Shown: positions 549 to 46,314, counted from the first letter of the stretch. The stretch: DNA of 64,000 nucleotides from an uncultured Bacilli bacterium (GCA_934141145.1 CAKPCA010000003.1:7748-71747); one strand, 5' to 3'. The notes: generated by a model not told the origin, from the letters alone. Translations and numbers: made by a program.

Positions 549-569
549 ATAATTAAAATGGTGATAAAA

Positions 570-1355
570 ATGAAAGTATATTTAGATTTAATATTATTAT
601 TAAATTTTTTGTTTGATTTTATATTATTATTAAGTACATCAATAATACTTAAACGAAATACTAAAATCTATAGAATAATACTTGGTTCTTTAGTTGGTAG
701 TATTACAATGCTTTCACTTTTTTTAAGAATGAATAGTTTTACATTATTTATATTTAAATTTATAGTGAGTATATTAATGATCATAACAGCATTTAATTAT
801 AAAAATATAAAATATACTTTAAAAAATATATACTATTTATATATTGTGAGCATAGTTCTTGCAGGAGCACTTTATTTTATAAGTAATAATTTTTTATACA
901 ATAATGAAGGATTTATATTTATTAAAAATAAAGTAAGTATAAATATAATATTTGCCTTAGTACTTTCACCACTAATTTTACATTTTTATATTAAGCAGAA
1001 TAAAAATTTAAAAACTAATTATAATAAGTATTTAAAAGTAGACATATATTTAAAAAATGGACAAATTATTAGTTTGAATGCATTCTTAGATACTGGTAAT
1101 AAACTAATTGATCCATATAAAAAAAGACCAATTATTTTGATTAGTAAAGATAAAATTAAAATGGATAAACAAGAAAAAATATTATTAGTGCCGTATTATA
1201 ATTTAGAAAATAATGGACTTTTAAAGTGTATAGTACCATCTAAAATATATATAGAAGGTCTTGGTTTTAAAAAGAAATTTTTAATAGGTTTATCACCAAA
1301 TATAAATATAGATGGTGTGGACTGTATTTTAAATGAAAAATTATTGGAGGGATAG
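570..1355 (+). CDS. spoIIGA: sigma-E processing peptidase SpoIIGA (membrane aspartic protease)
   Basis: multi-TM N-terminus, DTGN aspartic-protease motif (FLDTGNKLIDP), immediately upstream of sigE; ATG at 570 has a GGTGA RBS. Confidence 0.8.
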   Translation: MKVYLDLILLLNFLFDFILLLSTSIILKRNTKIYRIILGSLVGSITMLSLFLRMNSFTLFIFKFIVSILMIITAFNYKNIKYTLKNIYYLYIVSIVLAGALYFISNNFLYNNEGFIFIKNKVSINIIFALVLSPLILHFYIKQNKNLKTNYNKYLKVDIYLKNGQIISLNAFLDTGNKLIDPYKKRPIILISKDKIKMDKQEKILLVPYYNLENNGLLKCIVPSKIYIEGLGFKKKFLIGLSPNINIDGVDCILNEKLLEG

Positions 1356-1357
1356 AT

Positions 1358-2050
1358 ATGATTAAATTATTAAAAATATTATTAGGAAAATTATTTACAA
1401 AGTATAACGAATTATTTTTTGTTGGAAGTACTGATATACTTCCAGAACCACTTAGTAAAGAAGAAGAAGAAAAATATGTGGAGTTATTCCAAAATGGTGA
1501 TATGAATGCTAAAAATAAGTTGATAGAACATAATTTAAGATTAGTTGTGTTTTTATCTAAAAGATATGAAAATACAAAAGTAGATTTAGAAGATTTAGTT
1601 TCAATTGGTACAATAGGTTTAATAAAGGGTATAAATACTTATAAAAATGATAGAAGTATAAAACTTGCAACATATGTATCTAGATGTATAAATAATGAAA
1701 TACTTATGTATTTAAGAAAAAATAAAAAAAGAAATGCGGATGTATCACTTGATGAATCACTTAGTTTTGATTCAGAAGGTAATGAGTTAAGACTTGAAGA
1801 TATATTAGGTACAGAAGCAGATGTAGTAACTAAAAACTTAGAAGAAAATGATATGAGAAAAATAATGCTTAAGGAAATAGGTAAGTTAAATGAAAGAGAT
1901 AAACAGATAATGGTGCTTAGATATGGTTTATCTAATAACGATGAATTAACCCAAAAAGAAGTCGCAGAACTTCTTGGAATATCACAGTCATATATATCTA
2001 GAATAGAGAAAAAAGTAATTAGTAGAATAAGAAATATGATGAAAATCTAA
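1358..2050 (+). CDS. sigE: sporulation sigma factor SigE (pro-sigma-E)
   Basis: pro-sequence plus sigma-70 regions 2 and 4 (NLRLVVFLSKRY, SQSYISRIEKK); adjacent to spoIIGA; GGAGGG RBS. Confidence 0.85.
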   Translation: MIKLLKILLGKLFTKYNELFFVGSTDILPEPLSKEEEEKYVELFQNGDMNAKNKLIEHNLRLVVFLSKRYENTKVDLEDLVSIGTIGLIKGINTYKNDRSIKLATYVSRCINNEILMYLRKNKKRNADVSLDESLSFDSEGNELRLEDILGTEADVVTKNLEENDMRKIMLKEIGKLNERDKQIMVLRYGLSNNDELTQKEVAELLGISQSYISRIEKKVISRIRNMMKI

Positions 2051-6432: not shown

Positions 6433-7608
6433 ATGCAGTTTCCATATAAAGTATCTAAACTTACTAAAGATGAGATAGATGTATTTAATAATTATTTTGC
6501 AAATAATAATGAATATATATTTGAAGGAGTATGGTTTAGAAGTCAAAATATAGAAAATAAAATTAATTCAGGTTACGTTGATAACACAACAAAAAGAAGA
6601 AGAACACTTCATTATAGACATACGTTTTATATAGAAAATGATTACTTAATGGTAAAAGACTCTTATATTTATTTAAGTGTTAGATTGCCATTAGATGAAT
6701 ATTATGACTATGTAAATAGTATAAAAGAAGAATTAAATAATAGTAACTATAATTTCATTAATAACGAATACAAAAAAGATGATATAGTAATTATTATTAA
6801 TGAATTTGATAAGCATCCCGAAGAGGAAAAAATAGATAATTATAAAGTAGTAGATATTATAGTAAAAAGTAATAATTTAACTAATACTAGTGATTTTTAT
6901 ACTCAAGTTTGGAAACTTCAAGTAAAAGGAATAAGAGAAAAGGATAAAAGAGGTAATCCAGAATATATAACTGATATAAGAAAGCTAGAAAAATATTTAC
7001 CAGCACAAGTAGAACTCGGATGTGGACCTAGTATAGAAGCAGGAATAATGCCACTTTATTATTTACATGAAATATATAAAGTTCAAAGACATAGTGATGG
7101 AAAGTTCTATTTTGGAAAAGATGATGATTTAATTCTTCAAATAATAAAAAAAGACAAAGATAAATTTGATGAATTTTATGAAATGATGATAATGTGCATT
7201 AAAGCAAAGCCTACATTATTTCATAAAAAATTAAAGGAAATGTATGAGAAAAATATATTAAAAGGGGATTTATTAAATAATAACTTTGATCGTTTATGTA
7301 AAAGAATAGGAATAAATGAAAAAATACTAAGAGTATATAATATTGAAAATTATTTTCCTAAAATAGAGTTTGATAAAAATATAAAGTCTTTAATATGTAT
7401 AGGTACACACGCGGATAGAAGAGGAGTACAAAAACAAGCAAGAGAAAAAGGATTAAAAATTATATATATAGATCCAGAGGGCTTCGAGACTGGTAATGGT
7501 TTTGAAGAATATTTAATAGAAGGCGCAAGTGATAATGATTTAATATTTAGAGTAAGTGCTAATTCTTTTGCTAATTTAATTGACATAAATAACATTAAAA
7601 TTAAATAA
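6433..7608 (+). CDS. SIR2-like (DHS-like NAD-binding fold) protein with an unknown 190-aa N-terminal domain
   Basis: C-terminal half carries GCGPSIEAGIMP (cf. sirtuin GAGIS..AGIP), LNNNFDRLCKRIG (cf. TQNIDxLhxxAG) and ICIGTHADRRG (cf. the GTSL motif). No obvious catalytic HG. The ORF track starts at 6409; ATG 6433 has the better RBS. Confidence 0.45.
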   Translation: MQFPYKVSKLTKDEIDVFNNYFANNNEYIFEGVWFRSQNIENKINSGYVDNTTKRRRTLHYRHTFYIENDYLMVKDSYIYLSVRLPLDEYYDYVNSIKEELNNSNYNFINNEYKKDDIVIIINEFDKHPEEEKIDNYKVVDIIVKSNNLTNTSDFYTQVWKLQVKGIREKDKRGNPEYITDIRKLEKYLPAQVELGCGPSIEAGIMPLYYLHEIYKVQRHSDGKFYFGKDDDLILQIIKKDKDKFDEFYEMMIMCIKAKPTLFHKKLKEMYEKNILKGDLLNNNFDRLCKRIGINEKILRVYNIENYFPKIEFDKNIKSLICIGTHADRRGVQKQAREKGLKIIYIDPEGFETGNGFEEYLIEGASDNDLIFRVSANSFANLIDINNIKIK

Positions 7609-7612
7609 AATA

Positions 7613-7641
7613 TTGATATATATTTTTATTTATTATATAAT
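7613..7641 (+). promoter_or_regulatory. sigma-A promoter upstream of tig
   Basis: TTGATA, 17 nt, TATAAT. Confidence 0.5.
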
Positions 7642-7670
7642 AAAAGAGATTGTTTTAAGGAGGAAGTTTA

Positions 7671-8912
7671 ATGAAAAACGTACATAAAATAGAAGTAAAA
7701 ATAGAAGGACAAAAATGGGAAGAAGCTCTAACAAAAGCATTTGAAAAAGTATCAAAAGATGTTAAAGTTGATGGATTTAGAAAGGGTAAAGTACCAAGAA
7801 ATATATTTGAAAAAAAATATGGTAAAGAATCTTTATATCCAGAAGCAGTAGATGCTGTACTTCCAAAAGCATATGAAAAGGTATTAAATGAAAATAAATT
7901 AGAACCTATTATTCAACCAACAATTGATATAAAAGAAATTGATGAAAAGCATGTAGTAATAGAATTTACAATAACTACTAAACCTGAAGTAAAAATCAAA
8001 AAATATAATGGTTTAAATGTAAAAAAAGAAAAAGTTTCAATAACTAATAAAGATGTAGAAAATGAAATAAATACATTATTACAAAAATATGCAGATGTAG
8101 AAGTAAAAGAAGGAAAGATTGAAAATGGTGATATAGCTGTTATTGATTTTGAAGGATTTAAAGATGGTGTAGCATTTGATGGTGGAAAAGGAGAAAATTA
8201 TTCACTTGAAATAGGTAGTAATACATTTATACCAGGATTTGAAGAACAATTAATAGGATTAAAATCTGGTGATGAAAAAGATATAGAAGTAACATTCCCA
8301 GAAGATTATGGTTCAGAAGAGTTAAAAGGTGCTAAAGCAACATTCAAAATAAAAGTACATGAAGTAAAAACTAAAGTACTTCCAAAAATGGATGAAGAAT
8401 TCTTTAAGGATTTAGGATTTAAAGATGTTGAAACAGAAGAACAATTAAGAGACTTAATAAAGGCAGATTTAGAAGCAAAAAAAGATTATGAACTTGAAAA
8501 TAAATATGTAGATGATTTATTGGAAGAAGTTGCAAAAAATACTACAGTAGAATTACCAGAACAATTAATTGATGAAGAAATTCATAGAATGATGCATCAA
8601 TATGAAGATAATTTAAAAATGCAAGGTATAACACTTGATATGTTCTATAAGTTTACAAATTCAGATGAACAAGCATTAAAGGATCAAATGAGAGGCGAAG
8701 CAGAAAAGAGAGTTAAATATAGATTTATGCTTGAAGAAATTGCTAGTCTAGAAAAAATAGAAATAGATGATAAAGAAGCAGAAAAAGAAATAGAAGATTT
8801 ATCTAAAAAATATAATACTCCAAAAGAAGAATTATTAAAACAAATTGGTGGTATTGAAATGATTAAATACGATCTTAAAATGCAAAAAGTATTAGATGTA
8901 ATGAAAAAATAA
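7671..8912 (+). CDS. tig: trigger factor
   Basis: DGFRKGKVPRNIFEKKYG motif plus PPIase and C-terminal domains. Confidence 0.9.
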   Translation: MKNVHKIEVKIEGQKWEEALTKAFEKVSKDVKVDGFRKGKVPRNIFEKKYGKESLYPEAVDAVLPKAYEKVLNENKLEPIIQPTIDIKEIDEKHVVIEFTITTKPEVKIKKYNGLNVKKEKVSITNKDVENEINTLLQKYADVEVKEGKIENGDIAVIDFEGFKDGVAFDGGKGENYSLEIGSNTFIPGFEEQLIGLKSGDEKDIEVTFPEDYGSEELKGAKATFKIKVHEVKTKVLPKMDEEFFKDLGFKDVETEEQLRDLIKADLEAKKDYELENKYVDDLLEEVAKNTTVELPEQLIDEEIHRMMHQYEDNLKMQGITLDMFYKFTNSDEQALKDQMRGEAEKRVKYRFMLEEIASLEKIEIDDKEAEKEIEDLSKKYNTPKEELLKQIGGIEMIKYDLKMQKVLDVMKK

Positions 8913-8976
8913 TGATGTAAAAAAAGAATGTTTAACTCTTTTTTTGTTTATATAATGTAAATAAGAAAGAAACTTA

Positions 8977-9005
8977 TTGACATAAAGGCTAGGGGGGTAT
9001 ACTAT
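8977..9005 (+). promoter_or_regulatory. sigma-A promoter for the pilin gene
   Basis: TTGACA, 17 nt, TACTAT. Confidence 0.45.
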
Positions 9006-9032
9006 AAGTAAATAGTATAGGAGAGTAGGAAA

Positions 9033-10205
9033 ATGAAGAAAAAAGGATTTACATTAATAGAATTATTAGCAGTAATAGTAATCTTAGCAATAATAACAGT
9101 AATAGCAGTACCAAAAATACTGAATGTAATAGAAAAGTCAAAAGAAAGTAGTGCGGAAAGTAGTATAAAACTTGTAAAAGATGCAATAAAAACACAAATA
9201 ACCGCAGGAGATGCACTAAATGAATCTAACTTTATAAAAAATAATGATGGTTGTTATTTATTTGATTTTGATGATCAAAGTACAGCAAATTCAAAAGAAT
9301 TAAAACTAAAAAATAAAGATAAAATAAGTGGAAGTATAACTTATTGTAATGGAACATTTAAAGATGATACATTAAAATTTGATGGTACAGAAATATCAAA
9401 AGACGATAATAACAATAAAATAATATGTAAAAGAGCAACAACACTTCATACAGAAGAATGTACACAGACAGATACAACATATTCTTGTTCAGGAGCTGGA
9501 TATACAACTAGTGGTTCAAAAGGAACAACTACAATAACATATGGTAACTTAGGAACAAAAGGAACACTTACTTCAGGGGATGCATTTGATTGTGATGTAA
9601 ATGGAGATGGAACATACGATTCAACAACAGAAAGATTTTATTATGTAACAGATATGGATAATAATACTGCAGTATTAATTTATTATAATAATGTAAGTGC
9701 AGGTAGTCCAAGTAATAGTGAGGTATATGCATATGATAGTTCAGAAGAAAACTTTCATGGACCAAGAACAGCAATAGAGCAGCTTCCTACAACTAGTCAA
9801 TGGAAAAATGTAAGTTTAAAAAATAGTACAAGAGCAATATTAAATGAGAATGCAGGTAATACAACAACAGGAGGAATATTGCCAAGTAACTTTAGTTATT
9901 CTGGATATGCAGCAAGATTACTTACAATAAATGATATTAGGAAGACTACTAATAATGGAAATATACCGACTAAACAGGTGGGAGAATTAGATGATTTTAA
10001 TTATTTATTAGAAAATACGAAGTATTCAAATCCTGATGTAGGAAATTATGGGTATTGGCTTGAAACTCCATATTTTGATAATTCAACCGATGCATGGTCA
10101 TTAAGTGGCGATTCCAGTCATATTTATTATACTATTGTTTCAAATGAGGTTTATCGTGGTGTTCGTCCGGCAATAGAAGTGTCTAAAGTAAATATTTTAT
10201 ATTAA
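9033..10205 (+). CDS. type IV pilin-like protein (prepilin N-methylation site) with a large Thr/Gly-rich C-terminal domain
   Basis: class III signal KKGFTLIELLAVIVILAII; 390 aa; no assembly genes adjacent. Confidence 0.8.
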   Translation: MKKKGFTLIELLAVIVILAIITVIAVPKILNVIEKSKESSAESSIKLVKDAIKTQITAGDALNESNFIKNNDGCYLFDFDDQSTANSKELKLKNKDKISGSITYCNGTFKDDTLKFDGTEISKDDNNNKIICKRATTLHTEECTQTDTTYSCSGAGYTTSGSKGTTTITYGNLGTKGTLTSGDAFDCDVNGDGTYDSTTERFYYVTDMDNNTAVLIYYNNVSAGSPSNSEVYAYDSSEENFHGPRTAIEQLPTTSQWKNVSLKNSTRAILNENAGNTTTGGILPSNFSYSGYAARLLTINDIRKTTNNGNIPTKQVGELDDFNYLLENTKYSNPDVGNYGYWLETPYFDNSTDAWSLSGDSSHIYYTIVSNEVYRGVRPAIEVSKVNILY

Positions 10206-10283: not shown

Positions 10284-12014
10284 ATGTTAGGAAAAATAAT
10301 AGCAATTGAGGGGAATTTGGCAGTTATAAAATTATCTATTGATTTAAGCAATAAAACTGGATTATTAAATATGCATGTTGCATTTGATTCAGTAGGATCA
10401 ACTATAATTGGTGAAATAGTTTCATTAAGTTTAACAGAAGCAAAAATATTATTACTTGGTGAAATAATAAATAATAATTTTGTGTCTGGTGTTAATAAAA
10501 AACCATCATTTTCAAGTACAGTTAGAATAATAAATAGAAATGAACTTGATTTAATAATTGGAAATTCAAATGGTGAACATTATGTTAATTTTGGAAGATT
10601 ACCACTTTATTCAGGATATCCATTAAATATAGATCCAAATAAGTTTTTTTCAGAACACTTTTGTATAGTAGGTAATTCTGGTAGTGGTAAAAGTTCTTCA
10701 GTCGCAAGAATATTTCAAAATTTATTTTTAAATAATACGCCAAAGACTAATATTTTTATATTTGATGTTTTTGGTGAATATCATACAGCGTTAAAAGGTA
10801 TAAATAATATTTCATATAAATCTTATACAACGGATAAAGAAAGTGAAGAAACTAATTTAGTACAAATACCAATATGGTTACTTGATGCGGATGATATGGC
10901 ACTTTTATTAGAAGCAGAAAGTTATGTACAAATACCTATAATAGAAAAAATGCTTAGAATAGTAACTATATATTCTATGGATGAAGAACAAAGAGATAAA
11001 CATATAAATGATATAATAGCAAGAGCTGTCTTAGAAATACTATATAGTGGTAAACCAGCTAATCAATTAAGAGACCAAATAATGGCAATCTTCTCAATGT
11101 TTAATACTAAAACATTGAATTTAGAAACAGAAGTTAGAGTTCCTGGATGGACTAGAACATTAAGACAATGTTTGATTCTTGATAAAGATGGTAAAATAGC
11201 AGATATAGTACTTGTTTCTAATTTCTTTAAGAAATTTATAAATAATGATACAGAATTAAATCCAGGTCATGGTAAATTATATTATACATTAGAAAATTTA
11301 TATGATGCTTTAGAACTTGCATTTATTTCTGAAGGAATATTAAAAAGTGACGCAATATATGAGAAAATTAATGTTTTAAGAGTTAGATTAAAATCTATAA
11401 TAAATAGTGATTATGGTAATTATTATAGAGTAGACAATTATATTTCTAAAGAAGATTATGTAAAATCTTTAAATGAAGATGGTAAATATAATATAGTTAA
11501 CTTTAATATAAATAATATTACTGATAGACAAGCTAAAGTTATGATAAAAATATATTCTAAAATGTTATTTGAATATAATGCGAGATTAGAAGATAGAGCT
11601 TCATATCCAGTACATATATTTATAGAAGAAGCACATAGATATATACAAAGAGATAGAGATATTGATTTGATTGGATATAATATATTTGAAAAAATTGCAA
11701 AAGAAGGAAGAAAATATGGTGTTATTTTAGGATTAATAACACAAAGACCTTCAGAACTTAGTGATACTACACTTTCACAATGTTCAAATTATTTAATTCT
11801 AAGAATTATAAATCCTAAAGATCTTGATTATATAAAGAATGTTGTTGCTAATATGAGTGATGAATTAGTCGCTAAAATAAAGAGTCTTCAACCAGGATAT
11901 ACTTTGATGGTTGGTAGCGCATTTAAAATACCTATAATAACTAAATTTGATATGCCAAATCCAGCCCCATATTCTAAAAATGTTGATATAAATAATACTT
12001 GGTACAAAGAATAA
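10284..12014 (+). CDS. HerA-like (DUF87) HAS-barrel ATPase
   Basis: N-terminal HAS-barrel-like beta region; Walker A GNSGSGKSS; Walker B HIFIEEAH; GLITQRPSEL motif typical of the HerA/FtsK clade. Confidence 0.7.
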   Translation: MLGKIIAIEGNLAVIKLSIDLSNKTGLLNMHVAFDSVGSTIIGEIVSLSLTEAKILLLGEIINNNFVSGVNKKPSFSSTVRIINRNELDLIIGNSNGEHYVNFGRLPLYSGYPLNIDPNKFFSEHFCIVGNSGSGKSSSVARIFQNLFLNNTPKTNIFIFDVFGEYHTALKGINNISYKSYTTDKESEETNLVQIPIWLLDADDMALLLEAESYVQIPIIEKMLRIVTIYSMDEEQRDKHINDIIARAVLEILYSGKPANQLRDQIMAIFSMFNTKTLNLETEVRVPGWTRTLRQCLILDKDGKIADIVLVSNFFKKFINNDTELNPGHGKLYYTLENLYDALELAFISEGILKSDAIYEKINVLRVRLKSIINSDYGNYYRVDNYISKEDYVKSLNEDGKYNIVNFNINNITDRQAKVMIKIYSKMLFEYNARLEDRASYPVHIFIEEAHRYIQRDRDIDLIGYNIFEKIAKEGRKYGVILGLITQRPSELSDTTLSQCSNYLILRIINPKDLDYIKNVVANMSDELVAKIKSLQPGYTLMVGSAFKIPIITKFDMPNPAPYSKNVDINNTWYKE

Positions 12015-12037: not shown

Positions 12038-12061
12038 TTATAATTTTTTTAGGTGATAATA

Positions 12062-13147
12062 ATGTCTAATATAAAAAGTGCATATATACATATTCCTTTT
12101 TGCAAAAGTATTTGCTCATATTGTGATTTTAGTAAAATGTATTATAATTCTAATTTTGTTAATTCATATTTAAATGCATTAAGTAATGAAATAAAAGAAG
12201 ATTACAAAGGTGAAATATTAGATACTATTTATATTGGTGGAGGAACACCATCCGCATTAAGTATAGATGAATTAAAAAACTTATTTTTAATAACAAATAC
12301 TTTAAATTTAAGTGATAACTATGAATTTACTATAGAATGTAATATAGAAGATATAACTAAAGAAAAACTAGAATTATTTAAAAATAACAAAGTTAATAGA
12401 ATTAGTATAGGGGTACAAAGTTTTAATAACAAGATATTAAAATACTTGAATAGAAAGTATGATAGTGAAATTATATTAAAAAAAATAAATTTAGTAAAAA
12501 AATATTTTGATAATATAAATATTGATCTAATATATGCGGTTAATAATGAAACTATTGATGATTTAAAAAAAGATTTAAAAATGTTTTTAAGTATTGATAT
12601 ACCACATATATCTTGTTATTCATTAATAATTGAAAAAAATACCATTTTATATAATAAAAATGAAGAATATATAAGTGAAGATTTAGATAGATTAATGTAT
12701 GATACAATAGAAAAGACATTAAGTTCTAATTATTGTCATTATGAAATAAGTAATTATGCTAAAAAAGGATTTGAATCAAAACATAATTTATGTTACTGGA
12801 ATAACAAGGAATATTATGGATTTGGTTTATCCGCCGCATCTTTTATAGAAAATAAAAGAATTAATAATACAAGAAATTTAAAAAAATATATAGAATTTAA
12901 TAGAGATAAGGAAGAAGAAATACTTACTAAAGAAGATAAGATAAGATATGAATTAATACTTGGTTTTAGAAAGATAGAAGGTATTAACAAAAAAGAATTT
13001 TATAATAAATATAATATAGATATTCATAATTTGTATAATATTAATGAACTATTAAAAAAAGGTTATTTAAGTGAAAATGATAAATATATTTTTATACCAA
13101 AGGAGTATATTTATGTTTCAAATGATATTTTGATTAATTTTATATAA
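12062..13147 (+). CDS. hemW: radical SAM heme chaperone HemW (HemN-like)
   Basis: CxxxCxxC (CKSICSYCDF) plus GGGTPS; position before hrcA as in Bacillus. Confidence 0.85.
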   Translation: MSNIKSAYIHIPFCKSICSYCDFSKMYYNSNFVNSYLNALSNEIKEDYKGEILDTIYIGGGTPSALSIDELKNLFLITNTLNLSDNYEFTIECNIEDITKEKLELFKNNKVNRISIGVQSFNNKILKYLNRKYDSEIILKKINLVKKYFDNINIDLIYAVNNETIDDLKKDLKMFLSIDIPHISCYSLIIEKNTILYNKNEEYISEDLDRLMYDTIEKTLSSNYCHYEISNYAKKGFESKHNLCYWNNKEYYGFGLSAASFIENKRINNTRNLKKYIEFNRDKEEEILTKEDKIRYELILGFRKIEGINKKEFYNKYNIDIHNLYNINELLKKGYLSENDKYIFIPKEYIYVSNDILINFI

Positions 13148-13209: not shown

Positions 13210-13512
13210 ATGGAAGAATTAGATTTTGAACCTATAGATGAAGTTCTTGAAAATAATGAAGAGATAGAAACTTTAGATATTGATGAAAATCCTTCTAATA
13301 CAGAAGAAGATATGATAAAAATAGATAGACTATTTAATGTTAATGATGAAGAAGATAAGAAGGAAGAACAACTTAATAAAGAAAAAGAAACAAAAAAAGA
13401 TAAAAAAATAGAGAAAATACAACTAGGTTTAATAATATTTTTAATAGTAAGTGCGACTCTTATATATTTTTTTGGTTATAATTTAGTAGAGCCATTTATA
13501 AAATTAGAATAA
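13210..13512 (+). CDS. small acidic protein with a C-terminal TM helix
   Basis: D/E-rich N-terminus; single TM LGLIIFLIVSATLIYFF; AGGAGG RBS. Confidence 0.5.
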   Translation: MEELDFEPIDEVLENNEEIETLDIDENPSNTEEDMIKIDRLFNVNDEEDKKEEQLNKEKETKKDKKIEKIQLGLIIFLIVSATLIYFFGYNLVEPFIKLE

Positions 13513-13513
13513 A

Positions 13514-13542
13514 TTGACAAATAAAATAAAAAAAAGTATAAT
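13514..13542 (+). promoter_or_regulatory. sigma-A promoter
   Basis: TTGACA, 17 nt, TATAAT; followed at 13536-13575 by a 7-bp AT-rich hairpin plus T-run. Confidence 0.45.
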
Positions 13543-13581
13543 CTACGTGAAAAGGTTATACTTTTTTTAGGGGGAATATAT

Positions 13582-15222
13582 ATGATAAACAAGGAAAAAG
13601 TATTAAATGAAGTTATAAAAAAATATGAAAAATTTGGAATAACAAAAGAAGAAATACAAAAGTATTTAGTTGATGAGACAAGTACATATAAAAATGATGC
13701 AGATGCAATTAAAAAAATATCAATATCTCTTGATAACTCTATAGTTCAAAATGTCGCAAACTTAAGCACTATAAGAACTTCATACAATTATTTAAAAAAA
13801 ATAATTAAATCAGATGGTATTAGCTTATCAAGAATTAGTAAATTAGCAAGTAATGATAAAGTAAGTATTGATAGCAAGCTTGATGAAATATATAATCAAA
13901 TAATAAATACAATAAAAGAGAATTATGATAGTAGTAAATTATTAAGTCAAAATATAATAGAAAATATGAAACAATTTTTACAAAAAGATGTAGTTACAAG
14001 TATAGATAAAAATGAACAATTTGATATTACTTTTTTAAAGAGATTAAATGGTGTCAGTATTGAATCTATTTCAAAAGTAACAGATATTCCAGTATCAACA
14101 CTTTATAGTTATATTAATTTGAATAAAAAAGTTCCTGGATATAATCTTGCCCAAATTCTTGAATATTTTAATGTAAAAAATTATGATGAATTAAAAGAAT
14201 TATCTGAACAAAAGAAACTTGTTACAGAAGTTTTAAAAAACAACCCTGAAGTAGAAACAAATACTAATAAATTTGATATTTCTATACTAAAAGCTTATTT
14301 ATTAAAAAATAATGTAATGCTTGTTAAATTACAAATAGTATTATCAATGAACAAAGCAAGATTAATAAAATGTCTTGCAGGTGAAGAACTAGTTACGGAT
14401 GATATCATGAATGAAATATATAAATTATTTGAAGTAAATAGTTATGATGAACTTGTAACAAAAATAAGAGAAAATACTTTAAAAATTCCAGCGTGTTTAA
14501 AACCAGAGCGTTATGATATATTATTTTTTAACAAATTTATAGCTTTAAATAATATTGATAAGATAAAACTAGCTGATACATTAGGTATAAATAAGATGGT
14601 GTTAAGTGATTATTTAAATGGTAAAAAAGCCGCACCAACAAAATTAGTAGATAAGCTAATTGATATATTTGGGTTAATCAATTTTTATGATTTAGAAGTT
14701 AATGTGAAAAAAAATACTTTAAATGTTCCAACCTATTTATTAAAAACAGTAAAAGAAAATATAACTGTAAAAAATATTAGTACCCAAGAAAAAGATAATA
14801 AAGAAATAATTAAGAATAATATTTCTGAAAAAGTAAAGGAAACAGAAGAATCTAAAAAAGAAGTAAAAGATGCTAAATCAGAAGTAGAAAATGAACAAGA
14901 AACACAAATAAATGAAATTGCTAGTAGTTCTACCAGTAATACCCACACTAATGATACGATTCCAAATATTCTAAATATGATAAAGATAGATGAACTATTA
15001 AAATTAATCGGAAAAGAAAATATATCAAACTCAGATTATATGATTGTATTACTATTATTTGGAGGAGTAGAAGATCAATACTTTAAGATATCTTCAATAT
15101 CAAAATTCCTTCATATAAATGAAGAATACATTAATAATATTTATACTAAATGTCTAGAATTATATAAAAATAAATTAAATGATGAATTAAAAAAAGAAAA
15201 AACTATGATTTTAGAAAAATAA
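13582..15222 (+). CDS. hypothetical regulator: N-domain, three tandem XRE-type HTH repeats, K/E-rich linker and a sigma-70 region-4-like C-terminal HTH
   Basis: three ~70-aa repeats (FDITFLKRLNGVSIESISKVTDIP.., FDISILKAY.., YDILFFNKF..); C-terminus DYMIVLLLFGGVEDQYFKISSISKFLHINEEYINNIY resembles sigma region 4. Confidence 0.55.
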   Translation: MINKEKVLNEVIKKYEKFGITKEEIQKYLVDETSTYKNDADAIKKISISLDNSIVQNVANLSTIRTSYNYLKKIIKSDGISLSRISKLASNDKVSIDSKLDEIYNQIINTIKENYDSSKLLSQNIIENMKQFLQKDVVTSIDKNEQFDITFLKRLNGVSIESISKVTDIPVSTLYSYINLNKKVPGYNLAQILEYFNVKNYDELKELSEQKKLVTEVLKNNPEVETNTNKFDISILKAYLLKNNVMLVKLQIVLSMNKARLIKCLAGEELVTDDIMNEIYKLFEVNSYDELVTKIRENTLKIPACLKPERYDILFFNKFIALNNIDKIKLADTLGINKMVLSDYLNGKKAAPTKLVDKLIDIFGLINFYDLEVNVKKNTLNVPTYLLKTVKENITVKNISTQEKDNKEIIKNNISEKVKETEESKKEVKDAKSEVENEQETQINEIASSSTSNTHTNDTIPNILNMIKIDELLKLIGKENISNSDYMIVLLLFGGVEDQYFKISSISKFLHINEEYINNIYTKCLELYKNKLNDELKKEKTMILEK

Positions 15223-15235
15223 GAAGGTGATTTTT

Positions 15236-16126
15236 ATGGAATTTAATGTAAAGACACATTTAAAAAATAAGTATAAAGATTATAATATACCAGAATCAAT
15301 AATTGATAAAATAGAAAGTGAAGAAATTCAAGGCTATTATGTTGATATATTAATTAGAAAAACTATTCAAATAGAAAATTATATAATTGAACAAATAAAA
15401 AAAGATGATCTTGAAAAAGAATTATTAGTTTTAGAACAACATTCGTCATTAAAAACAATTATAAAATACAATAAAATTTGTTTAAAATTGCTAGATGAAT
15501 TAGCAAACAAAGAAGGTCTTTCTATTGATAAAGTGATAAATAAGCTTTATGAAGATGCATTGGAAAGATCATTAAGTAATTATAATGATAGCAGATTGAT
15601 TAGTGAAAATATTTTGTATAATATGCAAATAATACTGCTTCAAAAATTTGGATATGATGTTTCTTCTATAACTACTAGTTTTAACAAAACTAAAGAAGAA
15701 CAAGTAAAAGAAGAAAAAAATAATACTGAATCAGTTAAAAATGACTTAAAAAGTGATAGAAGTAAAAAAGAAAAAAAGAAAGAAAGAACACTTCAAAAAG
15801 ATATAAATATAGAATTTAATAAAACAACATTTGATGCAGAAGAAGTACCAAATATTAGAAAAATGATAAACTTAGAATATTTATTAAAATTAATTGGTTA
15901 TAAAAATGGTACAAAAACCAAAGATGATGCAATTATATTTTTATTGTTTGGTGGAATAGATGGACAATATTATAAAAATAGCGAAGTCGCAAAGGCTTTA
16001 AATATAAGTGAAGAGTATGTAAATGAAGTATATCTTAGATGTTTAGAAGAATACAAAAATTCTTTAGAAAATACTTACAAAAATGATATTAAAAATAAAA
16101 AATTAGGTTTATCAAAAAGCTCTTAA
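15236..16126 (+). CDS. paralogue of the 13582 protein without the HTH repeats (N-domain plus sigma region-4-like C-terminus)
   Basis: shared N-terminal motif (SRLISENILYNM vs SKLLSQNIIENM) and C-terminus (LLKLIG..IIFLLFGGIDGQYYKNSEVAKALNISEEYVNEVY). Confidence 0.55.
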   Translation: MEFNVKTHLKNKYKDYNIPESIIDKIESEEIQGYYVDILIRKTIQIENYIIEQIKKDDLEKELLVLEQHSSLKTIIKYNKICLKLLDELANKEGLSIDKVINKLYEDALERSLSNYNDSRLISENILYNMQIILLQKFGYDVSSITTSFNKTKEEQVKEEKNNTESVKNDLKSDRSKKEKKKERTLQKDINIEFNKTTFDAEEVPNIRKMINLEYLLKLIGYKNGTKTKDDAIIFLLFGGIDGQYYKNSEVAKALNISEEYVNEVYLRCLEEYKNSLENTYKNDIKNKKLGLSKSS

Positions 16127-16202
16127 AAATATAAATAAGAGCTTTTCTTATTGCAAAAATTTATGTCACATAGTATACTTAAAATAAGAATAGGTGAAGA
16201 GT

Positions 16203-16589
16203 ATGAATAAATTTATAGTAAAAATTTTTATGTTGATGACATTCTTATTAATATTAACGGGATGTGCGACTAATAATAATAAAAATATTGATGAAAAACA
16301 AAATAATGATAACGATATGCTTATAAATCAAAATTATGATGGACTAGAATTTGTCAATGCAAAAATTAGTAATAGTGAAATAGTGACTGTTGTAATAAAC
16401 AATACAGGATATACTTATGAGGGCTCTAAATTTAAAATGAAAATTATGGATGAATCAGGAAATACAATAAAAGAAATTATTGATAAAGTAAGTGAAAAAG
16501 TAGAAAATGGTACAACAAAAACAATAAAAACAAAAGTAAATATAGATATATCAAAAGCGAGTAGTATTGAATATAGTATTATTAAGTAG
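16203..16589 (+). CDS. lipoprotein
   Basis: lipobox LILTGC. Confidence 0.6.
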   Translation: MNKFIVKIFMLMTFLLILTGCATNNNKNIDEKQNNDNDMLINQNYDGLEFVNAKISNSEIVTVVINNTGYTYEGSKFKMKIMDESGNTIKEIIDKVSEKVENGTTKTIKTKVNIDISKASSIEYSIIK

Positions 16590-16610
16590 ATGAATGTCTA
16601 CTTTTTATAT
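16586..16610 (+). terminator. terminator before the hrcA operon
   Basis: agtaga/tctact hairpin plus T-run. Confidence 0.5.
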
Positions 16611-16613
16611 TAT

Positions 16614-16640
16614 TTAGCACTCATCTATTGACATTGCTAA
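16614..16640 (+). promoter_or_regulatory. CIRCE operator (HrcA site), imperfect right arm
   Basis: TTAGCACTC-N9-cATTGCTAA; overlapped by promoter TTGACA(16628), 16 nt, TATAAT(16650). Confidence 0.7.
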
Positions 16641-16686
16641 AATAAGTGTTATAATTAGATTGTACACTTGGATTAGAGGTGAATAT

Positions 16687-17676
16687 ATGCTTACAGAAAG
16701 ACAAAGTTCTATACTAAAAATTATAGTTGAAGAGTATATAAAAGTACCAAAGCCAGTTGGTTCAAAATCTATTTGTGATTCATTAAATGTATCTAGTGCG
16801 ACAGTTAGAAATGAAATGGCTAACTTAGAAGATTTAGGATACTTAGAAAAAACACATGTATCATCAGGTAGAGTTCCATCTGAGAAAGGTTATAGATATT
16901 ACGTTGATAACTTAATGAAGCCAAAAGAAATGAGTGGTGAAGATGTATTAAAACTTCAAACAATATTCCAAAATAATTCATTAGTATTAAGTGATGCAAT
17001 AATAAAAAGTTTAGAGATAATATCTGAAATGACTAATTATACAGCAGTTATATTAAAGGATAATGCTTTAGAAAGTAAACTTAAAAAAGTTGAAGCAATC
17101 CCAATTGATGAAAATAATGTAACAGCTATTCTTGTAACAGATAAAGGACATGTTGAAAATAAAATAATTAATATAACAGGTTCTAATCTTGAAGAAGTAA
17201 ATAAAACTGTTGAACTTATTAATAAACTTATTGTTGGTACCCCAATTGATGAAGTTACATCTAAACTTGAATTTGAAATTAAACCAATTATTAATCAATA
17301 TGTAAAACATCATGAAATACTTTATAATGCGTTCTATAATGCATTTAATAATTTTAAAGATAGTGCAGATATGACTATGAGGGGTAAAAGTAATTTACTT
17401 GAACTTGATGAATTTTCATCTGATGCTAGAAAAATTAAAGATTTAGTTAATAAGTTTGATAATGACAATATTGTTTCTAAAATTAAAGAAGATGACTCTG
17501 GTATAAATGTGTACATAGGTAATGAAAACAACATAGATGATGATTTGACAGTAATAAAGACAAAATATAATGTAAATGGTAGAGAGGGAACACTTGCAAT
17601 TCTAGGACCTAAAAGAATGGAATATGATAGAGTTGTAAGTTTACTTGAATACTTAAAAGAAGAGATTGAAAAGTAA
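16687..17676 (+). CDS. hrcA: heat-inducible repressor HrcA
   Basis: MLTERQSSILKIIVEEY winged-helix N-terminus; CIRCE upstream; grpE-dnaK downstream. Confidence 0.9.
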   Translation: MLTERQSSILKIIVEEYIKVPKPVGSKSICDSLNVSSATVRNEMANLEDLGYLEKTHVSSGRVPSEKGYRYYVDNLMKPKEMSGEDVLKLQTIFQNNSLVLSDAIIKSLEIISEMTNYTAVILKDNALESKLKKVEAIPIDENNVTAILVTDKGHVENKIINITGSNLEEVNKTVELINKLIVGTPIDEVTSKLEFEIKPIINQYVKHHEILYNAFYNAFNNFKDSADMTMRGKSNLLELDEFSSDARKIKDLVNKFDNDNIVSKIKEDDSGINVYIGNENNIDDDLTVIKTKYNVNGREGTLAILGPKRMEYDRVVSLLEYLKEEIEK

Positions 17677-17688
17677 GGAGGTTTCTTT

Positions 17689-20060
<2,372 letters not shown>

Positions 20061-20072
20061 TAAACAGATATA

Positions 20073-20104
20073 GAAGTTCTAGCTTGCTAGAACTTTCTAT
20101 TTTA
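20073..20104 (+). terminator. terminator-like hairpin after dnaK
   Basis: aagttctagc/gctagaactt stem; interrupted T-run. Confidence 0.5.
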
Positions 20105-45228: not shown

Positions 45229-46314
45229 ATGAATGAATTAAAAACTTTTGAAGAAAGAAAGAACGAATTATTAAAAAAAGGAAAAGAAAATGGCTTTTTA
45301 ACTTTTGAAGAACTTGCTAATACATTAAAAGGTCTTGAAATGGATGCAGAAAGTTTAGATGAATTATATAACTTTTTACATGATAATAATATAGAGGTAG
45401 TTGCTGAAAGTGAACCAGATAGTGATTCTGACTCTGGTGATGGTGATTTATTACTTGAGGATATTTCACTTCCAAAAAATTTAAGTATAAATGATCCAGT
45501 AAGAATGTATTTAAAAGAAATTGGTAGAATAAGTCTTTTATCTACAGAAGAAGAATTAGAATTATCAAAAAGAATTGAAGAAGGTGACGAAGAAGCTAAA
45601 TCAATACTTGCAGAAGCAAATCTTAGACTTGTTGTATCTATTGCAAAAAGATATGTAGGTAGAAATTTATCATTTCTAGATCTTATTCAAGAAGGTAATA
45701 TTGGTCTTATGAAAGCAGTAGATAAATTTGATTCATCAAAAGGATATAAATTTTCAACATATGCAACATGGTGGATACGTCAAGCAATAACAAGAGCAAT
45801 CGCTGACCAAGCAAGAACAATAAGAATACCAGTTCACATGGTAGAAACTATTAATAAACTAAAAAGAGTTCAAAGACAATTAACTCTAGAACTTGATAGA
45901 GAACCTACAGAAGAAGAAATAAGTAAAGAACTTGGTATTCCAGAAGATAAGGTTCGTGAAATAATAAAAATATCACTTGATCCATTATCACTTGAAACAC
46001 CTATTGGTGAAGAAGATGATTCTCACTTAGGAGATTTTGTTAAAGATGAGAATAGTTTAAGTCCAGAAGAGTATGCTATAAATGAAGTATTAAAAGATGA
46101 AATATCAGAGTTATTATTAACATTAACAGAAAGAGAGGAACAAGTAATTAAATTAAGATTTGGTCTTGTAGATGGAACTTGTAGAACACTAGAAGAAGTA
46201 GGTACAATATTTGGTGTTACAAGAGAGAGAATAAGACAGATAGAAGCAAAAGCATTAAGAAAACTTCGTCATCCATCTAGAAGCAAAAAATTAAAAGATT
46301 ACTTGGTAGATTAA
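45229..46314 (+). CDS. sigA: primary sigma factor SigA/RpoD
   Basis: regions 1.2 to 4; [12 protein letters not shown] and [17 protein letters not shown]. Confidence 0.95.

Follow-up and report, generated by a model that had tools for sequence, protein, structure and literature searches.

What is encoded by the DNA that lies between hemW and hrcA in an uncultured Bacilli bacterium, and do the genes found there form a single regulatory module? The stretch analysed here (64,000 nucleotides (nt); GCA_934141145.1 CAKPCA010000003.1:7748-71747; referred to as the window) was described in an earlier note, prepared without database searches, as carrying at this position a four-gene insertion of 3.4 kb that encodes two unusual sigma-factor-like proteins and their possible membrane partner. 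The interposed 3.4 kb and four plus-strand open reading frames (ORFs) were found as described, and are termed p1 to p4 (Table 1); loci and proteins from related genomes are denoted by L and P numbers, respectively. The analysis indicated, with a probability of about one half for the reading as a whole, that p2 and p3 are lineage-restricted regulators built on multiple helix-turn-helix (HTH) units, in which a tail derived from region 4 of sigma-70 factors (sigma4) serves as a protein-contact module and p3 acts as a modulator. The classification of the family and the structural part of this reading are probable, and the mechanism proposed for the two proteins is tentative.

Paralogous proteins with a C-domain derived from sigma-70 region 4

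p2 is composed of an N-terminal domain (N-domain), three XRE-type HTH units, a charged linker and a C-terminal domain (C-domain), and p3 of the same two end domains joined by a linker. The three HTH repeats previously proposed for p2 were verified by Pfam HTH_3 (38.8 bits against a cut-off of 23, E = 9e-10) and by an HTH-unit hidden Markov model (HMM) built from other family members with p2 left out, which scored each unit at 53-56 bits (E about 1e-18 to 1e-19). The units are mutually 24-27% identical, with a BLASTP E-value of 4e-9 for unit 2 against unit 3, and unit 2 is the best-modelled portion of the AlphaFold2 (AF2) model of p2 (predicted local distance difference test (pLDDT) 65-89). By the gathering score of XRE HTH_3 (PF01381), p2 belongs to that family; p3 has no HTH_3. 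The paralogy of p2 and p3 is supported by 47% identity over the C-terminal 85 amino acids (aa; E = 9e-21) and 29% identity over the N-terminal 119 aa (E = 1e-8). The start of p3 was placed at the ATG at 15236, in agreement with the gene caller, with a ribosome-binding site (RBS) GAAGGTG 6 nt upstream and the p2 stop 13 nt before it; the length of 299 aa given previously, counted from a GTG at 15227, is corrected to 296 aa.

The C-domain alone falls below the Pfam threshold for Sigma70_r4 (E = 0.11), and its origin was established by four lines of evidence that agree. In hhalign, a C-domain profile built from 19 HTH-repeat family members and containing no sigma factors matched Pfam-verified sigma4 segments with 97.1% probability (E = 5e-11), and a profile restricted to the window lineage did so with 96.9% (E-values for both profiles ranging from 5e-11 to 2e-10). 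An HMM scan of the 263 ORFs of 50 aa or more in the window served as a neutral control: the C-domain HMM matched only p2, p3, rpoD and a sigE-like gene, and reciprocally the sigma4 HMM matched p3 (32.9 bits) and p2 (23.2 bits). When PDB sequences were searched with the C-domain profile, 17 of the 24 top matches were sigma-factor chains (best E = 0.11), all but one of these chains aligned over region 4 and the three alignments shown were in register; an earlier search of this kind using a shallow C-domain alignment had given no match. Finally, the best local Foldseek matches of the p2 model were to region 4 of sigmaA, with template modelling (TM) scores to the target of 0.6-0.68 and root-mean-square deviations (rmsd) of 2.4-3.1 Å over about 60 columns. 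The C-domain is thus homologous to, and derived from, sigma-70 region 4, as the earlier note had suspected from the likeness of the C-terminal segment.

The C-domain is in register with regions 4.1-4.2 of Sigma70_r4 (PF04545), including the LxLxFG turn and the HTH by which membership of the sigma-70 family is judged, but the basic residues that contact the -35 element are absent and p2 and p3 have neither region 2 nor region 3. Glutamate, tyrosine and asparagine replace the basic residues of the recognition helix, which reads EEY(I/V)N(N/E)(I/V)Y in p2/p3 versus RERIRQIE in the RpoD of the window. The C-domain is acidic to neutral, with an isoelectric point (pI) of 5.4 in p2 and 8.0 in p3 compared with 9.9-10.0 in the two real sigma4 domains of the window. 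Because of the loss of these residues and the low pI, the C-domain is unlikely, judging from its sequence, to read the -35 element in the usual way.

Domains of the same type were also seen at the end of genuine SigE/K-like and RpoD-like sigma factors, which bear long C-terminal extensions ending in one or two C-domain copies (P0040, P0046, P0048-51, P0055, P0058, P0060-62, P0066, P0068, P0071, P0073, P0075 and L021:17048-19318). The extensions hold one or two 'SIYEYF...LRYG...NPV' modules that are themselves sigma4-like (hhalign 92%). Their terminal C-domain is the same as that of p2 and p3 (E down to 4e-13 with the family profile); unlike p2 and p3, these proteins have Sigma70_r2 and Sigma70_r4 above Pfam cut-offs, and neither XRE units nor the family N-domain. 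The C-domain HMM restricted to the window lineage also matched the canonical region 4 of extended sigma factors (18-31 bits), and in two of them region 4 outscored the terminal domain. Literature searches found no account of sigma factors extended C-terminally in this way.

The all-helical N-domain had no relative in Pfam, NCBIfam or PDB sequences, the PDB matches being at chance level. No Sigma70_r2 was found in p2 or p3 with Pfam, hhalign gave the N-domain a 0.3% probability against region 2 (sigma2), and a sigma2 HMM built from sigma factors associated with the family found the two sigma genes of the window and neither p2 nor p3. As the N-domain lacks similarity to sigma2, p2 and p3 are not regarded as sigma factors. 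Comparison of the N-domain with sigma2, sigma4, a second C-domain or the 'LRYG' module gave hhalign probabilities of 2% or less, and these identities were rejected.

The p2-p3 operon and its neighbours

p2 and p3 constitute a two-gene operon, with a promoter, a 13-nt gap between the genes and a terminator of its own. The promoter is 100% identical in L086/L087, where the p2 protein is just 83% identical, and is one of two sigma70-type sites with a perfect (12/12) match; it lies at 13514-13542, and the other precedes hrcA at 16628-16655. The inverted repeat that overlaps it folds as RNA at -14.8 kcal/mol (z = -6.4) and is kept in L086/L087; it may be the terminator of hemW-p1, an operator of p2, or both. 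The -10 hexamer lies inside the left arm of the hairpin, and a terminator-like element for hemW-p1 and the p2 promoter, possibly with an operator, are packed into 55 nt (13514-13568), a stretch that shows no difference between strains in which 17% of p2 residues differ. The half-site of the inverted repeat was considered as a regulon motif and rejected, as it is not enriched in the window (13 matches versus 9.9 +/- 3.3 expected). The terminator-like hairpin at the end of p2-p3, to which a comparable hairpin corresponds 3' of p3 in L086, was missed by a consensus scanner because its stem is too poor in G-C pairs.

Promoter-like sites are not in excess in this AT-rich stretch (44 versus 39.5 +/- 6.6 in shuffled sequences), and the proposal that each gene has promoter-like elements carries meaning only for p2 and hrcA, and weakly for p4. 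Downstream, the hrcA-grpE-dnaK operon keeps its own promoter, a perfect site with an extended -10 that is overlapped by the operator CIRCE (controlling inverted repeat of chaperone expression). Instead of a four-gene insertion the region thus holds separate transcription units, and p4 is missing in a strain that has an 83%-identical p2.

The p1 product, with a net charge of -17, combines an acidic head with a single hydrophobic segment at its C-terminal end. Homologues with a variable head and one C-terminal membrane helix lie directly 3' of hemW in L005, L008, L011, L012 and L090, and share an invariant tail motif, YFFGY..(V/L)EP(F/Y)IK; the hemW-hrcA interval of more distantly related RF39-like loci holds weaker p1-like acidic ORFs. 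p1 is present in L005, L008 and L011, where p2 and p3 are absent, a hairpin and a promoter stand between p1 and p2, and no match of p1 to an anti-sigma family was found in Pfam or NCBIfam. p1 is a conserved, hemW-linked protein outside the p2/p3 module, and its suggested role as the membrane partner of p2 and p3 is not supported, as it persists after hemW in relatives without them.

The p4 lipoprotein gene has a weak promoter of its own (16151-16179), and a hairpin lies at 16584-16603. L086/L087 lack p4, no homologue was found among 80 related loci, and it is a strain-specific accessory gene that does not belong to the p2-p3 module. A weak match of p4 to phrog_902, a phage protein family to which no function is assigned, was also observed (E = 1.8e-5).

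A lineage-restricted family and its possible function

With p2, p3 and the C-domain profile as queries, word-index searches retrieved nothing beyond relatives of 56-100% identity, so that the family is visible only through an exhaustive profile search with the C-domain, which recovered 48 proteins, many of them genuine sigma factors. Family members share an N-domain of about 135 aa, n XRE units of about 80 aa, a linker and the C-domain, with n ranging from 0 to 15, and some have no N-domain; p2 and p3 have both end domains, with 3 and 0 units, respectively, between them. The contexts recovered, about a dozen, are almost only from RF39/CAG-433-type gut Bacilli. No family covering the N- or C-domain was found in Pfam, NCBIfam, PHROG or PADLOC, the last two giving nothing beyond generic HTH matches for p2 and p3, and the protein collection searched assigns no names to their relatives. 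No relatives were found in a pattern scan of genome contigs based on the p3 alignment, in two pattern scans of viral contigs or in one of metagenome contigs, a weak negative throughout, as such scans require exact short peptide patterns and are of limited sensitivity. The architecture was previously called unusual, and this description stands: the parts (XRE HTH, sigma region 4) are known, and the domain combination, the N-domain and the C-domain family are new to the databases and literature searched.

In at least six lineages, one to three family members occupy the site between hemW and hrcA. Where the available sequence extends far enough, members lie directly upstream of hrcA in L001-4 and L085-87 (the window lineage), in L012, L013, L090 and L091, in L093-95, and in L096 together with L009; a member in L089, which has other neighbours, is an exception. 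The gene order in L012 and L090 is lepA-herA-hemW-p1-[member]-hrcA. In L093-95 three consecutive members of 653 aa, 431 aa and 480 aa (the last with 5 units) are found, and in L096 three members follow hemW-p1; the contig stops within the third and that of L009, from the same metagenome-assembled genome (MAG), starts at hrcA, from which the adjacency of members and hrcA is inferred. Three members stand before hrcA in L091: the first has at least 982 aa and 11 or more units, the second is an HTH-less protein of 288 aa, and in the third, of 1639 aa, the family N-domain is followed by 15 tandem XRE-HTH units and the C-domain. Neighbouring units in this last protein are visibly alike, which indicates that the arrays grow by internal tandem duplication. 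Wherever the contig includes the neighbouring gene, HTH-less members (p3, P0033, P0053 and P0054/L097_247) adjoin a further member of the family; the neighbour in L097 is cut off after its N-domain. This recurrence across the clade, seen in the survey of hemW-hrcA regions, does not fit a one-off insertion. Among 80 species-level loci fetched via HrcA, a member precedes hrcA only in L012 and L013; L008 and L011 have the order hemW-p1-hrcA with no member, and L005, L006, L008 and L011 keep hrcA-dnaK without any family member.

Relative to L086, p2 and p3 are 83% and 87% identical, respectively, whereas HerA, HemW, HrcA and DnaK are 96-99% identical; relative to L085 the values are 50% and 56%, with HrcA at 98%. 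Ratios of nonsynonymous to synonymous substitution (dN/dS) were 0.26 for p2 and 0.22 for p3 versus 0.05 for hrcA and 0.03 for herA, indicating that the two are real coding genes that diverge fast under purifying selection weaker than that on hrcA or herA. The C-domain is the most conserved segment of p2 (95% identity to L086, 69% to L085) and the linker the least conserved (60% and 18%). In L005, whose HrcA is 99% identical, the site holds two orphan genes without Pfam matches; these were considered as diverged family members and rejected, the 324-aa product having a single weak HTH-unit match. The DNA of window 16611-20077 is 98.4% identical to L005 (a CAG:433 scaffold) from the left edge of CIRCE through dnaK, and upstream of CIRCE L005 is unrelated or far more diverged; the upstream genes of L006 are entirely different. 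As identity starts at CIRCE, the hrcA promoter marks a boundary of recombination or rearrangement between very close strains. A mobile-element origin was rejected, as there is no integrase or transposase, no flanking repeat and no shift in GC content (0.18-0.24, as in the flanks). No tRNA was found near the locus, and the repeats there are only short, AT-rich chance ones.

In the mechanism proposed, p2 would bind DNA by its three XRE units, as predicted from sequence, and the N-domain would drive self-association. The sigma4-derived tail would be a protein-contact module with RNA polymerase or another sigma4-type domain, such as that of the extended sigma factors, as its partner; this role is suggested by the high conservation of the tail, the loss of the residues that read DNA and its presence in the extended sigma factors. 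p3, having both end domains and no HTH, might join p2 complexes and tune or antagonise p2, by analogy with the action of SinI on SinR. Each p2 unit is a complete XRE/Cro-C1-type HTH, and the XRE relatives HipB, C-controller proteins and the P2 C repressor were among the Foldseek matches of the p2 model. To our knowledge, XRE proteins typically have one HTH and pair through a separate dimerisation domain; in this family, by contrast, 1-15 whole units are carried per polypeptide and capped by a private N-domain and a sigma4-like tail. Literature text searches found no description of such XRE-HTH arrays. In Bacillus subtilis, SinR/SinI and SlrR/SlrA each combine an XRE repressor with an HTH-less paralogous antagonist. 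The likeness of p2/p3 to SinR/SinI is one of gene logic only, an XRE binder beside a shorter HTH-less paralogue with which it has its non-DNA-binding domains in common. Pfam detected no Sin multimerisation domain in p2 or p3, and p3 keeps both flanking domains and is far larger than SinI. PhyR, in which sigma2-like and sigma4-like parts are joined to a receiver domain, uses a sigma-like domain as a protein-binding decoy. p2 and p3 resemble it in that a sigma-derived domain is apparently reused for protein contact and not for promoter reading, but they are not of PhyR make-up and no NepR-like partner was seen.

Several points weigh against the reading of p2 and p3 as multi-HTH regulators with a protein-contact tail. 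The AF2 models of p3 and p2 have mean pLDDT values of 60.6 and 52.1, respectively, and all Foldseek E-values obtained with them exceed 1e-3. An acidic recognition helix alone may leave DNA binding through other surfaces of the C-domain possible, and the modulator role of p3 is drawn from analogy and gene adjacency. Nor are arrays with as many as 15 HTH units easily squared with a classical repressor that binds an operator. A further reading, of little likelihood, is that the family represents a new bacterial way of reading DNA: it may comprise fast-evolving, array-type DNA readers whose chains of 0-15 XRE-HTH units grow and shrink by tandem duplication and which are coupled to RNA polymerase or extended sigma factors via the sigma4-derived dock that the clade has also added to its sigma factors. 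The fast divergence and the orphan replacement in L005 would also fit a conflict-type function, and the constant position by hrcA could signal a link to the heat-shock operon.

The same features were weighed under rival explanations. That p2 and/or p3 are very divergent sigma factors, with a degenerate sigma2/3 as N-domain and p1 as anti-sigma factor, is highly improbable. In addition to the sigma4-like C-domain and the single-pass membrane protein encoded just upstream of p2, this explanation draws on Foldseek searches with the whole p3 model, in which the top 50 PDB matches were all sigmaA chains (best E = 6e-3, probability 0.90) and phage sigma factors led the viral library. However, the full-length alignments to sigmaA have TM scores of 0.16-0.19 and rmsd of 26-33 Å, with none at E <= 1e-3, and these model-based matches amount to a hint. 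With no region 2 detected, the -35-reading residues lost, p1 lacking an anti-sigma domain and persisting without p2 and p3, and a hairpin and promoter dividing p1 from p2, the sigma/anti-sigma module put forward in the earlier note was not upheld. It is also very unlikely that p2 and p3 are dedicated regulators of hrcA-grpE-dnaK or hemW-p1. The constant position directly upstream of hrcA in at least six lineages speaks for such a role, but is accounted for equally well by vertical inheritance at a permissive intergenic site; moreover, hrcA has its own CIRCE promoter and is divided from p2-p3 by a terminator, and the four loci named above keep hrcA-dnaK without a family member.

Two further rivals differ in what the HTH arrays or the rapid divergence would be for. 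A DNA-architectural or site-marking family, with arrays that bind long or repeated tracts for nucleoid organisation or chromosome anchoring, possibly in sporulation, and do not control single promoters, would be consistent with 0 to 15 repeats in one family and arrays growing by internal duplication, with the near-neutral overall charge, and with the sporulation genes retained by the clade (spoIIGA-sigE, with spoIIP and a spoIIID-like gene nearby in relatives). It is nevertheless unlikely: no matching DNA tandem-repeat array was found in the window, where the promoter half-site is not enriched either, such proteins are usually conserved and abundant while p2 and p3 diverge fast and are dispensable in close relatives, and the sigma4-derived tail is left unexplained. 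A fast-evolving conflict locus, encoding for instance repressor-like decoys or immunity to phages or mobile elements in a recombination hot spot by hrcA, is likewise rather doubtful. The contrast in identity between p2/p3 and their neighbours, the replacement by two orphan genes in L005 with homology starting at CIRCE, a gene number that varies from 0 to 3, weak PHROG matches to phage repressors and a HerA-type ATPase two genes upstream all point in this direction; against it, p2 and p3 match no PADLOC family and have no effector domain, no relatives on viral contigs were found in the two pattern scans of limited sensitivity, dN/dS indicates net purifying selection, no integrase, flanking repeats or compositional shift was seen, and HerA is conserved between lepA and hemW without a partner gene.

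RF39-type Bacilli, which are uncultured and have reduced genomes, are common in the guts of humans and animals, and next to nothing is known of their regulation. Three features of the family are unusual among bacterial transcription proteins: whole XRE domains are chained up to 15 times, sigma region 4, stripped of the residues that read DNA, is put to use in proteins that are not sigma factors, and the C-domain is appended to genuine sigma factors, RpoD-like ones included. If the tail does dock on RNA polymerase or extended sigma factors, the family would represent a new coupling of DNA-binding arrays to the initiation machinery; if not, it would still be a clean case of a regulator family that is confined to one lineage, evolves fast and keeps a fixed place on the chromosome.

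Origin of the window and flanking genes

Clostridium sp. CAG:433 (FR893558.1) and two gut MAGs encode HrcA proteins 99% identical to the one in the window. This match and the name suggest that the window comes from a member of the CAG-433 family, which is placed within the order RF39 by a published GTDB assignment (PMC8035907). GC content is 18-34% over the region examined and about 21% within the locus, and there is no step in composition.

Table 1 Features of the hemW-hrcA region and of related loci (window positions, unless a locus is named)
Feature	Coordinates	Strand	Remarks
hemW, upstream flank	12053..13147 (gene caller start 12062)	+	TIGR00539 HemW E = 8.4e-87; Radical_SAM and HemN_C
p1, acidic tail-anchored membrane protein, 100 aa	13210..13512	+	RBS GAAGGAGG precedes ATG
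sigma70-type promoter of p2-p3	13514..13542	+	TTGACA-17-TATAAT, 12/12 match; 3' of p1 stop
Inverted repeat/hairpin, 16-bp stem	13529..13568		94% complementary; A-run and T-run flanks; overlaps -10 hexamer
p2, 546 aa	13582..15222	+	N-domain, 3 XRE-HTH units, K/E-rich linker, sigma4-like C-domain
p2 N-domain (aa 1-142)	13582..14007	+	all-helical; family N-domain HMM match aa 3-140
p2 XRE-HTH unit 1 (aa 147-209/210)	14020..14211	+	53.1 bits, leave-p2-out unit HMM
p2 XRE-HTH unit 2 (aa 231-298)	14272..14475	+	55.8 bits, leave-p2-out unit HMM
p2 XRE-HTH unit 3 (aa 311-378)	14512..14715	+	55.0 bits; best Pfam HTH_3 stretch aa 323-364
p2 K/E/N-rich linker (aa 389-455)	14746..14946	+	predicted disordered; pLDDT <30
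p2 C-domain (aa 456-540), sigma-70 region-4-like	14947..15201	+	hhalign, sigma4 HMM, Foldseek
p3, 296 aa	15236..16126	+	N-domain (1-138), linker, C-domain; no HTH unit
p3 C-domain (aa 201-290), sigma-70 region-4-like	15836..16105	+	sigma4 HMM 32.9 bits, E = 6.5e-10; AF2 helices H232-240, H251-258, H262-289 at pLDDT 65-80
Terminator-like hairpin and T-rich tract, end of p2-p3	16115..16146	+	11-bp stem, -11.2 kcal/mol, z = -2.8
p4 lipoprotein, 128/131 aa	16194/16203..16589	+	lipobox (LTGC) signal peptide; LPAM_1/FxLYD-type weak matches
hrcA control region	16614..16655	+	perfect extended -10 promoter (16628-16655) overlapped by CIRCE
CIRCE operator	16614-16640	+	2 mismatches; overlaps promoter 16628-16655
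hrcA, downstream flank	16687..17676	+	TIGR00331 E = 4e-90
p1 homologues	L005:6460-6843; L008:9611-9877; L011:3555-3890; L012:8423-8695; L090:5645-5902		
L005 orphan genes	6856-8865; 8911-9885		669 aa; 324 aa
L091 family members	L091:2-2950; L091:4015-8934		>=982 aa; 1639 aa

hrcA is followed by grpE and then dnaK, and greA, tig, a pilin-like gene, a HerA-type ATPase gene, pepF and dnaJ are also present in the window. rpoD is located at 45229-46314, and window 558-2050 holds spoIIGA (Peptidase_U4, 3e-45) and the sigE-like sigma gene (1358-2050), from which it follows that this reduced-genome lineage retains the sporulation sigma cascade at least in part; related loci were seen to carry spoIIP and spoIIID-like genes. 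The HerA-type ATPase (10284-12014; PADLOC HerA PDLC04102 E = 6e-100; DUF87) is solitary, with no adjoining SIR2, DUF4297 or NurA partner, and several relatives keep it between hemW and either lepA or a spoIIID-like gene; its place in L006 is downstream of dnaJ. Upstream of herA, window 9033-10205 encodes a protein of 390 aa whose N terminus bears a pilin-type methylation motif (N_methyl, 2.8e-7) and whose homologue in L005 is located downstream of dnaJ.

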